A program made the position numbers and the translations under genes. Of a stretch of DNA of 64,000 nt, positions 17,935 through 50,728 are shown piece by piece (position 1 is the first letter of the stretch; the number at the start of each line of letters is the position of its first letter). The notes below the pieces were generated by a model. It saw only the letters and a list, made by a program, of their open reading frames with translations, searched no databases and was not told the origin of the DNA. Source of the DNA: a virus (Duplodnaviria > Caudoviricetes); the IMG/VR virus record IMGVR_UViG_3300048851_000175, positions 84-64,083 of that record; one strand, 5' to 3'.

Positions 17935-18089
17935 GCACGGGTGAATCGATTGTATATCTGGTGATCATCACTGCGTGGGTGTGCGGCATTGCAGTCGCCA
18001 AGGGCTTCTGGCTGACGCTTGGCTGCGTGACGATTCCGCCGTTGAGCTGGGTCGTGCTGGCGCAGCATCTGATGGGGCTGGCTGCATGA
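17931..18089 (+). CDS. Small two-TM protein
   Basis: 52 aa, hydrophobic, ATGA-coupled on both sides. Confidence 0.6.
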   Translation: MSTGESIVYLVIITAWVCGIAVAKGFWLTLGCVTIPPLSWVVLAQHLMGLAA

Positions 18090-19387
18090 GTAAGACTCGC
18101 GCCGTGAAGCTCAGCGATGCAGAGATCCGCCGGCAGGCGGCCGACGTTGCCGTGCACGACCTTCGCGACCCTCGTCACCCGGGCCTCTACCTGCGATTCG
18201 GCAAAGATCGGCAGCGCGGCTCCTGGTATCTGGTCAAGGGCAAGGCATGGAAGCACCTCGCGCGCTGGCCCGAACTGAGTGCGGCCGCCATCGTTGCGGA
18301 GTTGCCTGCCCTCCGGCAGCGCCTGCTTCACGATCCAGAAGCCGCCGTAGCGGTGGGGCAGTTCGCCACGTGTGGACAACTGATCGAATGGTACGGCGAG
18401 CGCATGAGCCTGGACCGTTCGCTGTCGGCGAAGCGCAAGGCCGGCGCCAAGTCAGCCATCAAGTGCCACTTGAAGCCCAGGCTGGAGCACGTCCCCCTGC
18501 GTAACCTGACCGCCGCCGTGTTGGACCGTGAGCTGATGTGGCCATGCCAGCAAGAGCTGTCGTTGTCGTACGTGCATCAGTTATTCGTGCTGCTGGTGGT
18601 AGCGTTCCTGCAGGCCTCGAAGCTGGGCCTGATCGACAAAAACCCGATGGCCGAGATGAAGTTCGTGGACTTCACGAAGGCTCGCATCATGCCCAAGGCT
18701 GCACGGTTGCGCGGCGGGCACCTGGCGGAAGTGGTGCCCATGCTGGCCGGCCTGTTCGAGAGCCAGCCCGGCGAGTCCATGTTGGCGCTGATGATGCTGT
18801 GTCACGGCACCCGGGTCGGTGAAACCAGAATGGCGCGCTGGTCGGACATCTCCATCCCGGACGGCGAGTGGTTTATCCCGGCCGAGAACACCAAGACCCG
18901 GACCGAGCACCGTGTGCCGTTGACCGCTCAGGCCAAGGCGCTGCTGAGCCGGTACCGGGCAAACCAGCTGGCTCGCGGTTACGAGGGCATCTACCTGTTC
19001 CCGTCACGCCGCGGCCGTGTGCTAAGCGAGGGGCAGGCGAGCGCGGTGTTCACCCGCATCGGCCAAGGTGAGTGGACCAGTCACGACCTGCGCAAGGTTG
19101 CCCGCACAGCGTGGACAGACCTCGGCATCGACGGGCACATCGGCGAGATGCTGCTCAACCATTCGCTGGGCAAGATCGCGAGCACTTACATCAACACGCA
19201 GGCCCGGGCACAGCGTCTGGTGGCGCTGGAGAAGTGGCACAACTGGTTAGACGGGCGCGGCCTGAACGCGATTCACAACCTGACAGACACCCAATATGAA
19301 GATTCGCAAAACCCCGCGCAAGCCACGAACGGCGAGGGCTGCGAGCCTGTTTCCAACATTGTGAATGGCGAGGTTTCAAAAGCGTGA
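18086..19387 (+). CDS. Second tyrosine recombinase (arm-binding N-domain type) in the nin region
   Basis: GLYLRF N-domain; HGTRVGE (R), TKT (K), HDLRK (HxxR), LLNHSLG and STYI (Tyr) all intact. Confidence 0.85.
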   Translation: MSKTRAVKLSDAEIRRQAADVAVHDLRDPRHPGLYLRFGKDRQRGSWYLVKGKAWKHLARWPELSAAAIVAELPALRQRLLHDPEAAVAVGQFATCGQLIEWYGERMSLDRSLSAKRKAGAKSAIKCHLKPRLEHVPLRNLTAAVLDRELMWPCQQELSLSYVHQLFVLLVVAFLQASKLGLIDKNPMAEMKFVDFTKARIMPKAARLRGGHLAEVVPMLAGLFESQPGESMLALMMLCHGTRVGETRMARWSDISIPDGEWFIPAENTKTRTEHRVPLTAQAKALLSRYRANQLARGYEGIYLFPSRRGRVLSEGQASAVFTRIGQGEWTSHDLRKVARTAWTDLGIDGHIGEMLLNHSLGKIASTYINTQARAQRLVALEKWHNWLDGRGLNAIHNLTDTQYEDSQNPAQATNGEGCEPVSNIVNGEVSKA

Positions 19388-19698
19388 AAAAGAGCCATGG
19401 CCCTGCCTTCCGCAAAGAATTGAAACCGCTGATGGAGTGCGGCACCTGTCGCGGCGCCGGCGTCGTCAGCGGGGTTTTCCATCAGCTTGATTGCACTGCC
19501 TGCCATGGCTCGGGATGGGTCTGCCAGTCAACCGGTGACGCGCTGCCACTGGAAGACCTGGTGCCGCAACTGAACATGAAGCTGCGCAACGTCACCGCCG
19601 AACTCAACCGGGCGCGACACCGCCAGAGTGGTGCGCACGCACAATACGAACAGAACAACCGCCGCGGCGCCGGCGGCTCGAACTACACAGGGGACTGA
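19384..19698 (+). CDS. Zn-finger protein (CxxCxGxG repeats)
   Basis: CGTCRGAG...CTACHGSG. Confidence 0.7.
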   Translation: MKKSHGPAFRKELKPLMECGTCRGAGVVSGVFHQLDCTACHGSGWVCQSTGDALPLEDLVPQLNMKLRNVTAELNRARHRQSGAHAQYEQNNRRGAGGSNYTGD

Positions 19699-19701
19699 GC
19701 G

Positions 19702-20265
19702 ATGGGCATCTATAAAGACGTGATGGGCACGCTGGTCCGTGTACTGGCCGCCGACAATATCGACAACAGCACCAAGCAGTCCTGGCAAAAGTTGATCGAT
19801 GCTGATCTTCGACAGGGCGGCACCGGCAGTTCCATATCGGTCCGCGACAAGTTCGACTATGACTGCTGCCTTTACGCACTGCTGCACCGCCACCTTGATG
19901 CGGCGCACTGGGACGTGTTGGTGGCGAAATATTCAACGCACAAGGCCAACAAGGTGGGAGCGATTGGACGTCTTTCTACCCGCATTGGATCACCGGCACC
20001 GAGGCTCTTTATATATAAAGCGCTCACCGCCTGGGCCATTCCCCAACTAAAAGGCCTTCAGACGGGCAAGCGCTCCACCGACATGATCGTGCTGCCCGCC
20101 GAGTTCTACGACATGAATTCGTGGGATCCGGACGCCAACCCAGAGCGTACCCGTTACCGCTGGAGGGATGGGATCAAGAAGCGCTTAGAGGCGCTGGAAG
20201 AGGCGGCGGTGATCCATGCAACGGAGATATTCGACCTCGAAGAAATCTTCATCGACGCCGCTTGA
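19702..20265 (+). CDS. Late-gene antiterminator Q-like protein
   Basis: Last gene before a sigma70 promoter, two terminators and the lysis genes; C-terminal helical segment RTRYRWRDGIKKRL. Confidence 0.65.
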   Translation: MGIYKDVMGTLVRVLAADNIDNSTKQSWQKLIDADLRQGGTGSSISVRDKFDYDCCLYALLHRHLDAAHWDVLVAKYSTHKANKVGAIGRLSTRIGSPAPRLFIYKALTAWAIPQLKGLQTGKRSTDMIVLPAEFYDMNSWDPDANPERTRYRWRDGIKKRLEALEEAAVIHATEIFDLEEIFIDAA

Positions 20266-20331: not shown

Positions 20332-20363
20332 AAAAGCCCTGCCATTGAGCGGGGCTTTTTATT
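20332..20363 (+). terminator. tR'-like terminator 1
   Basis: AAAAGCCCTGC-cattga-GCGGGGCTTTTT. Confidence 0.75.
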
Positions 20364-20379
20364 GACTGCCATAAATGAC

Positions 20380-20410
20380 AAAGCCCCGACATGATCGGGG
20401 CTTTTTCGTT
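20380..20410 (+). terminator. tR'-like terminator 2
   Basis: AAAGCCCCGA-catga-TCGGGGCTTTTT. Confidence 0.75.
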
Positions 20411-20417
20411 TGCTCGG

Positions 20418-20559
20418 AAAAGAGAGGGCGACTCCAGAGGGTGCGCTAACACCCTAAGGAGACGCCAGATCGCAGCGTATACCTGCAAGCCAGCCAAGGC
20501 CCTCACTGCTCGCGCGAGCGGGGCGGAGCCTAGCAGAAACCTAAAGGCTTTGCAGAATG
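20418..20559 (+). ncRNA. Structured 5' leader, copy A (before the com-like gene)
   Basis: Hairpins and sequence blocks shared with 49118-49266; a 3' stem pairs with the RBS. Confidence 0.6.
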
Positions 20560-20742
20560 TTGAAAGATTGCAGATGTGGAAAGTGCAAAAGACTTCTCGC
20601 CCGTATCGGTGAGATGACGGAGCTCCAGATCAAATGTTCCCGGTGCGGGACGTTGAATCATGTGAGGGCCACGAGCCCCGAGCTATCGCCTTTGAGCGAC
20701 ATGAATGCGGAATCCTCCGCGAAAAATCATTCGACTCAATAG
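20557..20742 (+). CDS. Mu Com-like zinc-finger translational regulator
   Basis: DCRCGKCKRLLA...LQIKCSRCGTLN, the Com-family CxxC...CxxC pattern. Confidence 0.85.
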   Translation: MLKDCRCGKCKRLLARIGEMTELQIKCSRCGTLNHVRATSPELSPLSDMNAESSAKNHSTQ

Positions 20743-20750
20743 GTATCAAC

Positions 20751-21095
20751 ATGCAAAACGTAAAAGTAGGCAAGCACTTCGTAACTGTGTTCCCAACCAC
20801 TTTCCCTAACAGTGTTGCGCAGATCGTAGATCCTGCCACCAACACCGATGGGGTCCATCTTCAGACTGCGACTCTCGTAACCGCAGGCGGGACGCTGAAC
20901 CTGTACACCGGCAAGGTCGCTCCAACTCGTATTGGCGATCCTGTTGCTGCAGGTATCTTCGGCGGTGTGGATGGTGGCAACAACCGCCAGTACCAGCTGT
21001 CGTACCCGCTGTTCATTCCTGCTGGTTATGGCCTGTGGGCGTCTGCCAACACCGCAGGTGCAGCAATCGCGCTGACTTGGGACTTCGTGTCCTGA
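20751..21095 (+). CDS. Beta-rich hypothetical protein following com
   Basis: 114 aa, TAGG SD, ends YPLFIPAGYGLW...TWDFVS; followed by a hairpin at 21134-21156. Confidence 0.7.
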   Translation: MQNVKVGKHFVTVFPTTFPNSVAQIVDPATNTDGVHLQTATLVTAGGTLNLYTGKVAPTRIGDPVAAGIFGGVDGGNNRQYQLSYPLFIPAGYGLWASANTAGAAIALTWDFVS

Positions 21096-48858: not shown

Positions 48859-49117
48859 AACACTTTAAGCTCACAGTAAGCTCATTGCCCTTTCTGATCT
48901 CAGACTACGTCACTGCGATTCATCCCAGCCGCCTGACTTTTCACGCATCGAGCAAGGGGGGCGTGCATATTATTATTCATTAGAAAAGGTAGGAAGAACC
49001 GGTCATCCGTTTGAGTGATTTTTAGTGTACAGCCACGTTTGAATGCGCTCGAACCTGCGTTACCGAGCCGCTTGGTCCCGCCAGGTTCAGCGGGCAGATG
49101 AAACTTTTTAGTGACAC

Positions 49118-49266
49118 AAAAAGAGCGGCCAACAGGATGCGTCAACATCCCGCTGGCCACCGAACCGCAGACTATCCCTGCAAGTCCAGCCAAGGCTCCC
49201 GCTCTGTGCACAAAGCGCGGCGAGCCTGGCACCTGTTTATCCATACAGTAAAGGCTTGCAAAAATG
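49118..49266 (+). ncRNA. Structured 5' leader, copy B (before the Dam-like methylase)
   Basis: Homologous to 20418-20559, with compensatory changes in stems. Confidence 0.6.
49233..49248. promoter_or_regulatory. LexA-box-like site inside leader B
   Basis: CTGT-TTATCCAT-ACAG, 15 nt before the methylase ATG. Confidence 0.65.
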
Positions 49267-50034
49267 ACCAACCCGATTGTTCCTTGGATGGGCGGCAAAC
49301 GCCGCCTTGCAAAACCCCTGCTCGCGCTGTTTCCAGCGCATGACTGCTACGTTGAAGTGTTCGCCGGCGGCGCAGCGCTTTACTTTAAAAGGCCGGAGCC
49401 TGCAAAGGTCGAGGTCCTGAACGACATCAATGGTGAGTTGATCAGCCTGTACCGGGTTGTGCAAAACCACCTTGAAGAATTTGTTCGCCAGTTCAAGTGG
49501 GCGCTCAGCTCACGTCAGATTTTCGAATGGCAGAAGATGACCCGGCCGGAAACATTGACCGACATCCAGCGTGCGGCACGGTTCTTCTACCTGCAGCACC
49601 ACGCCTTCGGCGCCAAGGCGACTGGACAAACATTTGGGACGGCCACCACTGGGCGCCCGATCAACCTGCTGCGCATTGAAGAAACGCTCTCTAATGCGTG
49701 GCAGCGCCTTGCCGGCACCTATGTGGAGAACTTGCCCTGGCTGAAATGCGCCGAGAAATATGATCGCCCGCACACGTTTCACTATATGGACCCGCCGTAC
49801 TGGCAAACGCAGGGGTACGGAGCAGAGTTCGGGATGGGTGAATATCAGGCGATGGCTGATTTCATGCGCCGGTGCCAAGGGAAGGTAATGGTCAGCATCA
49901 ACGACCACCCGGCCATCCGTCGGGTTTTCGACGGGTTTAGGATGAAAGAGTTGAGTATCCGGTACAGCAACGCTAATCACAGGACCGCCAAAGCTGCGGT
50001 TACAGGTGAGCTGGCGATCATGAACTGGAAGTAG
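49264..50034 (+). CDS. D12-class (Dam-like) N6-adenine DNA methyltransferase, orphan
   Basis: PWMGGKRRL, YVEVFAGG, VLNDING, YMDPPY. Confidence 0.93.
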   Translation: MTNPIVPWMGGKRRLAKPLLALFPAHDCYVEVFAGGAALYFKRPEPAKVEVLNDINGELISLYRVVQNHLEEFVRQFKWALSSRQIFEWQKMTRPETLTDIQRAARFFYLQHHAFGAKATGQTFGTATTGRPINLLRIEETLSNAWQRLAGTYVENLPWLKCAEKYDRPHTFHYMDPPYWQTQGYGAEFGMGEYQAMADFMRRCQGKVMVSINDHPAIRRVFDGFRMKELSIRYSNANHRTAKAAVTGELAIMNWK

Positions 50035-50035
50035 G

Positions 50036-50728
50036 CTATGAGGGCTTTATCAGGTGTCCCCCCTGATTCTGCACATTCCCGACATCCTTGCTCACCTCAA
50101 ACCAGGTGAATTCCTCAGTCGGCCTGCAGCACTCCTTTGCGATCTCGGCGGCGCGCTCTGGCGTCGTTTCGGGATCCACCCATTCCCGGGCGTGCTCTGG
50201 GCTCAGCACCACCGGCCGGCGATCGTGAATGTCGACCATGCCTTGATCGCTGTCGGCGGTGATGATCACAAAACCGTCCTGCGGGTCCGGCTCAAGCCCC
50301 TGATGCACCTCCGCCAGCGCGGCGAAGAACATCGGGCCTTCCTCTTTCAGCCTGATGAAGTAGGGCTGTTTCTTCTTCGCATCGTTGGGATCCTTCACCC
50401 ATTCAAACCAGCCGTTGGCCGGAGCCAGGACCCGCCCGTTCGGCCACAGCTGCGTGAAGTACTTCCTCGTCATCACCGTCTCGACTCTGGCATTTATCGG
50501 AGCGGGGCGCTTCCCTTCACCCTTCGCCCAAAATGGCGACCATCCCCACCGCACCTTGTCTACGCTCAGCCCTTCCTCGGTCGGTCTGATGATCTCGACG
50601 CGAGTCGTCGGCGCAACGTTGTAGCGCTCGATTGGCCAGAGGTCGTATCCATTGATGACCAACTGCTCTGGCGCCAGCGTCTTAAGGTAGTGGTCCATTG
50701 GCTCGTAGACCGAGTAGCGTCCGCACAT
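50036..50728 (-). CDS. SOS response-associated peptidase (SRAP / YedK / HMCES abasic-site protector)
   Basis: MCGRY N-terminus, YNVAPT, INARVET, GWFEW, IHDRRPV, VGNV.N.G. Confidence 0.93.
   Translation of the reverse strand: MCGRYSVYEPMDHYLKTLAPEQLVINGYDLWPIERYNVAPTTRVEIIRPTEEGLSVDKVRWGWSPFWAKGEGKRPAPINARVETVMTRKYFTQLWPNGRVLAPANGWFEWVKDPNDAKKKQPYFIRLKEEGPMFFAALAEVHQGLEPDPQDGFVIITADSDQGMVDIHDRRPVVLSPEHAREWVDPETTPERAAEIAKECCRPTEEFTWFEVSKDVGNVQNQGGHLIKPS

Follow-up and report, generated by a model that had tools for sequence, protein, structure and literature searches.

Why does a provirus carry one element of about 145 nt directly in front of two unrelated genes, and on which strand does this element act? 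The DNA analysed here (the window, a stretch of 64,000 nt in all) is an IMG/VR provirus with DNA similarity to Pseudomonas phages only. The first-pass annotation had described a repeated structured leader before com (copy A) and before a Dam-like methylase gene, here called dam (copy B), and both elements of about 145 nt were recovered at those places, each ending at the start codon, with the shared blocks in the same order. The alignment of the two copies gave a mean column identity of 75% over about 145 nt, and the core CCTGCAAG(N)CCAGCCAAGGC, 19-20 nt long, occurred exactly twice in the window and in none of 100 shuffles. The coordinates of all features are given in Table 1.

Table 1. Features of the two copies and of the genes that they precede, in window positions. 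P2 is the helix masking the ribosome site, with segments 2 and 3 as its arms; SD, Shine-Dalgarno sequence; R1, covariance model of the element. RNA ends and promoter functions are predicted.
Feature	Position	Strand	Remarks
Copy A leader	20418-20559		Ends at the com ATG (20557-20559)
Copy B leader	49118-49266		Ends at the dam ATG (49264-49266)
com, 61 aa, Zn-ribbon Com family	20557-20742	+	PF10122 (6e-20); phrog_6417, "translational regulator"
dam, D12-class N6-adenine DNA methyltransferase, Dam-like	49264-50034	+	PF02086 (6e-22); phrog_56 (3e-90)
Two GC-rich hairpin terminators just upstream of copy A	20334-20404		The second (20380-20404) scores on both strands
P2 anti-SD arm (segment 2), copy A	20483-20491	+	CTGCAAGCC; com mRNA leader
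SD AAAGG and P2 SD-proximal arm (segment 3), copy A	20543-20555	+	GGCTTTGCAG; ends 1 nt before the com ATG
P2 anti-SD arm (segment 2), copy B	49178-49187	+	CTGCAAGTCC
SD AAAGG and P2 SD-proximal arm (segment 3), copy B	49250-49259	+	GGCTTGC
Full R1 match, copy A	20406-20539	-	RNA gene, -10 region and tail
Full R1 match, copy B	49103-49235	-
Predicted extended -10, copy A	20527-20535	-	TGCTAGGCT; read from sequence, putative function
Extended -10-like motif, copy B	49223-49231	-	TGCCAGGCT; first T of the hexamer is C; putative function
-35-like TTTACT, copy B	49247-49252		18 nt upstream of the -10; overlaps the dam SD of the other strand
Predicted antisense sRNA, copy A	20417-20519	-	About 103 nt, from about 20519 to about 20417; MFE -49.8 kcal/mol; consensus architecture
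5' hairpin, copy A sRNA	20508-20519
Closing helix P0, copy A sRNA	20499-20507 with 20421-20429
Middle hairpin, copy A sRNA	20464-20494
Long hairpin P1, copy A sRNA	20430-20463
U-tract, copy A sRNA	about 20414-20420
Predicted antisense sRNA, copy B	49116-49218	-	About 103 nt, from about 49218 to about 49116; MFE -55.1 kcal/mol, z -5.1
5' hairpin, copy B sRNA	49200-49217
Closing helix P0, copy B sRNA	49195-49199 with 49122-49126
Middle hairpin, copy B sRNA	49159-49190
Long hairpin P1, copy B sRNA	49127-49158
U-tract, copy B sRNA	49112-49121

Just upstream of the late region, the early operon holds a Phage_integrase tyrosine recombinase of 470 aa (17975-19387, +), far from the prophage ends, followed by members of two PHROG families of unknown function (19384-19698 and 19702-20265). 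Strong terminator hairpins stand between these early-region genes and copy A; they would block plus-strand readthrough into the late operon and reinforce the terminator of the antisense RNA proposed below. The gene after com (20751-21095, +) codes for a 114-aa product of a family of about 106-114 aa and unknown function, with no Pfam or PHROG match. At the other copy, a SRAP (YedK-like) gene (50036-50728, -) converges with dam, the two stop codons being 2 nt apart, and its transcript would extend antisense into dam unless terminated.

The element was found to be widespread. Scanning viral contigs with the core pattern gave more than 119 loci, of which about 107 are genuine. The covariance model R1, built from the element in this analysis and used for the genome counts, matched 64 of the 151 sampled Pseudomonas species genomes, in some of them as many as four times, and 7 of the 150 other sampled Gammaproteobacteria. 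Three subtypes were distinguished in Pseudomonas: com follows type A, and two different Dam subfamilies follow types B and C. Distant forms lie upstream of other methylases, which brings the targets overall to com, three Dam subfamilies and a ParB-like methylase. Among named phages, the element precedes com and Dam in Phipami28 and UMP151, an unannotated com with a Mom-like gene in JD024 and PAN70, and Dam directly in Meadow and Lodos. The usual gene order of type B is tail gene, endolysin, Rz spanin, element and Dam, with the element beginning at the spanin stop codon, and it therefore acts at the RNA level inside the late transcript. The proposal of a modular cis-regulatory RNA is borne out as a portable RNA-level cassette reused before unrelated genes. 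Four Pseudomonas genome loci (L284, L291, L292 and L293) carry degenerate copies with no methylase or com downstream, which look like remnants of decayed prophages.

We then consider the mRNA strand. The first pass had also pointed out that the ribosome-binding site AAAGG is buried by a pairing between (C)TGCAAG.CC and the adjoining GGCTT(T)GCA(G); this pairing is present in both copies and is kept, through different sequences, in nearly all of the relatives tabulated. In almost all tabulated instances the corresponding helix, P2, takes in the GG of the SD, and its end falls 0-5 nt short of the AUG. At least seven complementary versions of it exist among the relatives (segment 2 with segment 3): CUGCAAGCC with GGCUUUGCAG, GCAAGUC with GACUUGC, AGUGAUCC with GGAUCACU, GUGAGCC with GGCUCAC, GUGAGAC with GUCUCAC, GUGAGUC with GACUCAC, and GUGAAC with GUUCAC. 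P2 was analysed by duplex energies and haplotype tables; MAFFT could not align the SD-proximal arm across subtypes. Cognate arms gave duplex energies of -11 to -14 kcal/mol, compared to -3 to -7 kcal/mol for non-cognate or shuffled partners. P2 alone among the helices leans slightly towards the plus strand, by 81 to 17 in type B and by 7 to 0 in type C. As an inhibitory helix of the phage Mu type, it buries the start signals and covaries, and it is a real feature of the mRNA. When the isolated plus-strand leader was folded in silico, P2 was only partly populated, with scarcely any of it in type C, and the predicted leader is bistable, not firmly closed.

The structured leader of the first pass thus stands for the ribosome-site helix on the mRNA; the remaining helices, by contrast, are better formed on the minus strand (191 G.U cells versus 21). 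In each of the 102 unique instances the reverse complement had the better fold, by 10-12 kcal/mol, in the long hairpin as in the remainder of the element, with the caveat that the minus strand has the higher G+U content, a bias that favours folding in its own right, so that these raw energies overstate the strand difference. The RNAalifold consensus reached -39.7 kcal/mol with 33 pairs on the minus strand and -25.5 kcal/mol with 20 pairs on the plus strand. When one set of helices was read on both strands, 93.3% of the cells were canonical on the minus strand, 191 of them G.U, versus 79.6% on the plus strand, 21 of them G.U: the apparent A.C mismatches of the mRNA are G.U wobbles in the antisense RNA. 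In the minus-strand structure 93.6% of the cells were paired and 21 of the 33 pairs had changed on both sides, values reached by none of 500 shuffles. Two of the minus-strand helices were 100% paired, and helix 3 and the 5' hairpin are essentially nonexistent on the plus strand.

The covariation extends across the subtypes. In the first hairpin, the compensatory differences noticed between the two copies were confirmed as double-sided changes in 12 of 13 pairs among 38 diverse relatives. In type C and in the distant homologs, the middle hairpin UUGCAG/CUGCRG is replaced by CACUCG/CGAGUG, CACGG/CCGUG or CACAGUG/CACUGUG, fully compensated. The folding z-scores of window copies A and B were -2.9 and -5.1 on the minus strand, and -2.3 and -2.6 on the plus strand. 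The R1 model matched copy A with 104.7 bits (E 2e-26) and copy B with 116.2 bits (E 2e-29), on the minus strand only. The z-scores against shuffled sequences and the covariation, which is independent of composition, argue that the G+U bias is not the whole story. The helices other than P2 are selected on the minus strand. Both strands of the element are under selection, which accounts for the invariant core.

The minus strand also carries promoter-like and terminator-like motifs at fixed places. The motif TGnTAGGCT is kept in 97 of the 102 dam-type (type B) copies; in the alignment its "n" varies freely, and the TG and the T-A-...-T are fixed. A -35-like TTTACT lies 18 nt upstream of the -10 in type B. 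Type C is without the TG and has instead a TTGTYT as -35, at a spacing of 17. In the distant homologs, TGnTA(G/A)(G/A)CT is retained and the U-tracts are longer. TGnTAGGCT bears the signature of a putative extended -10 promoter, and this signature predicts one RNA of about 103 nt from each copy. The promoter scan called the proposed minus-strand promoter in neither copy because the hexamer TAGGCT, which is CAGGCT in copy B, matches just 3 of the 6 consensus positions. At the other end, a GC-rich hairpin of 13-16 bp is followed in most copies by 6-7 U within the next 9 nt, so that the predicted RNA has both parts of an intrinsic terminator at its 3' end, and the terminator scan flagged copy B on the minus strand (49161 to 49124). 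In type B relatives, a small extra hairpin, CCTGTTTATCCATACAGT, had been noted before the dam SD (49232-49252); it coincides with the spacer of the predicted antisense promoter and its -35-like hexamer, and this overlap may be the reason for its conservation in type B.

Taken together, the strand asymmetry, the promoter-like extended -10 and the intrinsic terminator suggest that the leader is mainly the template of an antisense sRNA. The minus strand reads as the gene of a cis-antisense sRNA of about 103 nt, with a putative start at the -10 signature and a putative end at the U-tract. Given this predicted start, segment 3 lies upstream of the predicted antisense promoter and outside the sRNA, and segment 2 lies inside it; the predicted sRNA spans segment 2 and ends before segment 3 in types A, B and C and in the distant homologs.

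It is very probable, in our view, that each copy is a cassette in which an antisense RNA gene faces a leader that masks its own ribosome-binding site. Such a two-strand regulatory cassette would stand directly before a late phage gene that could harm the host. On the plus strand, CUGCAAG(U)CC of segment 2 would pair with GG(U)CUUGCAG of segment 3, between the SD and the AUG, so that P2 would mask the ribosome site. On the minus strand, the sRNA would be made from its own extended -10 (TGnTAGGCT), located between segments 2 and 3, and would be laid out as a 5' hairpin, a three-way junction and a long hairpin that, with its U-tract, would serve as terminator. This sRNA would be fully complementary to the upstream 100 nt or so of the leader, segment 2 included, and would leave the ribosome site uncovered. 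Its binding to the leader would free segment 2 from P2 and unlock the translation of com or dam, and RNase III would probably cut the long sRNA-leader duplex. We infer that the RNA is made, where it begins and ends, and in which direction it acts. A cassette whose sRNA unlocks translation is our best explanation overall, held tentatively and at slightly under an even chance.

The direction of the effect was weighed separately. If the cassette is granted, activation is modestly favoured over repression because the predicted sRNA spans the masking arm in all lineages and leaves the ribosome site free in each. An activator made constitutively would, however, leave lysogens less tightly "off", the isolated leader is bistable in silico, and most of the cis-antisense RNAs characterised so far are repressors, as are nearly all of those studied in phages, plasmids and toxin-antitoxin loci (sar, OOP, CopA, Sok, RNA-OUT). 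An sRNA acting as a repressor, made from the prophage, would pair with leaky com or dam leader transcripts, RNase III would cut the duplex of about 100 bp and the mRNA would decay, which we consider unlikely. The sRNA would then be a safety lock or threshold, with expression only once late transcription outruns it and with P2 as a separate damper of translation. All of the structure, promoter and terminator evidence fits repression equally well, and the gated genes (Mom, Dam and, via Com, bacteriocins) are harmful if untimely. However, the sRNA stops short of the ribosome site in every lineage and covers exactly the masking arm, so that P2 must come apart when it binds; one repressive device undoing another makes an incoherent design, unless cleavage dominates.

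Another reading dispenses with the antisense RNA and takes the sense-strand leader by itself for a translational switch, one responding to a protein (Com, or a different factor of the phage or host) or to a small ligand. P2 and a competing upstream segment 1 would form a classic sequestor/anti-sequestor pair, all three segments covary, and plus-strand leaders fold below shuffled controls (z -3.3 and -4.4) and are predicted to be bistable. However, the helices outside P2 have A.C on the plus strand where the minus strand has G.U (the 191 versus 21 cells given above), and no covarying aptamer helices were found on the mRNA strand, where only P2 is favoured. The suggestion that Com is the effector was not upheld either: Com (PF10122) was found in 1 of the 50 phage records with a dam-type element, being absent from the other 49, and in none of the 31 of these records that are at least 90% complete, versus 23 of 23 com-type records in the positive control of the same search. 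Computed over these records, the dam-type element is independent of Com, and Com was rejected as a general trans-factor on this co-occurrence. It also seems uncommon for com-type and dam-type cassettes to stand together in one provirus. The motif recognised by Com of phage Mu, CC(N)2-3GAG, sits beside the inhibitory helix in a hexaloop that a C-G pair closes (PMC6483171). No such loop was seen when leaders A and B were read; their conserved plus-strand loop is GYG(N)3AAC, and the specificity of Pseudomonas Com may differ. No Rfam riboswitch matched. A sense-strand switch is thus, in our judgement, quite improbable.

The genes that follow com in the relatives are varied and comprise Dam, Mom (PF25680), colicin M-like (PF14859) and lectin-like (B_lectin) bacteriocins, DUF642, a GNAT/AAA protein and the family of about 106-114 aa mentioned above (loci L011, L093, L043, L121, L009, L151, L057 and L120). 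Com may thus control cargo of other kinds, bacteriocins included, in the prophage and tailocin clusters of Pseudomonas.

About as improbable as the sense-strand switch is a minus-strand hairpin and U-tract that act only as a terminator or insulator against backward transcription into the late region, such as transcription arriving from convergent genes or the end of the prophage, the rest of the conservation being due to the sense leader. Dam usually occupies the right end of the prophage beside convergent genes, as with the SRAP gene of the window and the minus-strand ORFs after dam at locus L023, and two further terminators stand behind copy A. A terminator, however, needs neither a covarying three-way junction, a 5' hairpin and a conserved hairpin loop, nor a TGnTAnnCT conserved at a fixed distance upstream, and the com-type copy lies within a run of plus-strand genes where there is nothing obvious to terminate.

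A DNA-level element (a folded single-strand site, a recombination or packaging site, or a protein operator) would suit the strand-asymmetric hairpin potential and the invariant 20-bp core, but it is very improbable given the fixed distance and orientation relative to the start codon, the complementarity of the core to SD-proximal bases in seven sequence versions, the promoter and terminator features, and a genome position that varies from mid-genome before com to the end before dam.

Four further candidates were set aside. A plus-strand promoter or operator was rejected since most dam-type copies start at the stop codon of a co-oriented Rz spanin gene and are intercistronic. An upstream ORF starting from an ATG in the first hairpin of type B was rejected since type A has an in-frame stop and the hairpin varies by compensatory changes and indels. 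RsmA/CsrA sites were looked for as GGA and gave no consistent motif, and no model of a SAM-type riboswitch matched.

The first pass could assign the element to no named Rfam family, and indeed neither strand matches one: at gathering thresholds the whole window gave no match, and in the search of the element at E values up to 10 only the upstream terminator hairpins gave sub-threshold matches. No account of this RNA was found in the searchable literature, and full-text searches with the core sequence, or for a prophage antisense RNA together with a methylase, gave nothing relevant. A cis-antisense RNA combined with an RBS-sequestering leader is a well-known kind of element; this family and its architecture appear undescribed.

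Among known systems, the com-mom operon of Mu likewise controls a late, potentially harmful DNA-modification gene through start signals held in an RNA helix that needs opening (PMC6483171; PMC3299994). Many of the cassettes contain com itself, with Mom, or Dam replacing Mom, downstream. The inhibitory hairpin of Mu is situated between com and mom, and Com protein opens it, whereas the present structure is upstream of com or, in phages without com, of dam, and the candidate opener is an antisense RNA. The Mu Com motif was not seen in leaders A and B.

The predicted sRNA resembles the countertranscripts (CopA-CopT of R1, RNAI-RNAII of ColE1, Rfam ctRNA, sar-ant of P22, OOP-cII of lambda) in being a cis-antisense RNA of about 100 nt that carries two to three stem-loops, with conserved hairpin loops and bulged long stems, ends in an intrinsic terminator and is encoded opposite its target's 5' leader. 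Unlike them, it has no Rfam sequence or profile match, its stems form a closed three-way junction, and it overlaps neither the ribosome site nor a leader peptide; it covers the anti-SD arm, from which the opposite sign of control is predicted. As in the anti-antisense sRNAs (DsrA, RprA and ArcZ on rpoS, RNAIII on hla, PhrS on pqsR), the 5' arm of the inhibitory helix is complementary to the sRNA and the 3' arm with the SD is not. Those sRNAs are encoded elsewhere and pair imperfectly over 10-25 nt, usually with Hfq, whereas the RNA proposed here would be cis-encoded and perfectly paired over about 100 nt, with activation as the predicted outcome. As with the reverse-promoter RNAs of EcoRI, where an antisense transcript in a restriction-modification unit tunes the enzyme, such tuning of a methylase or modification unit is predicted here. 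RNAs of the EcoRI type, however, lie within coding regions and are not conserved structured families, whereas the present one would be a mobile, non-coding cassette complete in itself and placed upstream of orphan methylases of phages.

More broadly, and with still more reserve than for the cassette with an unlocking sRNA, we put forward a portable sense/antisense RNA lock of temperate phages and tailocin clusters across Gammaproteobacteria, in which a cis-encoded, highly structured antisense sRNA would activate translation by titrating the anti-SD arm of the very leader opposite which it is made; as an RNA-only equivalent of Com, it would gate DNA-modification enzymes and, via com, bacteriocin cargo. 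If this is true, the RNA would be among the commonest unannotated RNA genes in Pseudomonas, present in about 4 in 10 of the sampled species genomes, and would be a new RNA family for annotators to call. It would account for the silence, until lysis, of orphan Dam methylases, of Mom-type modification and of Com-dependent cargo, including colicin M-like and lectin-like bacteriocins, in prophages, and would offer a handle on the timing of anti-restriction DNA modification. The element would also be a natural, compact cassette with both DNA strands under structural selection simultaneously, which may serve as a tight and portable translational gate.
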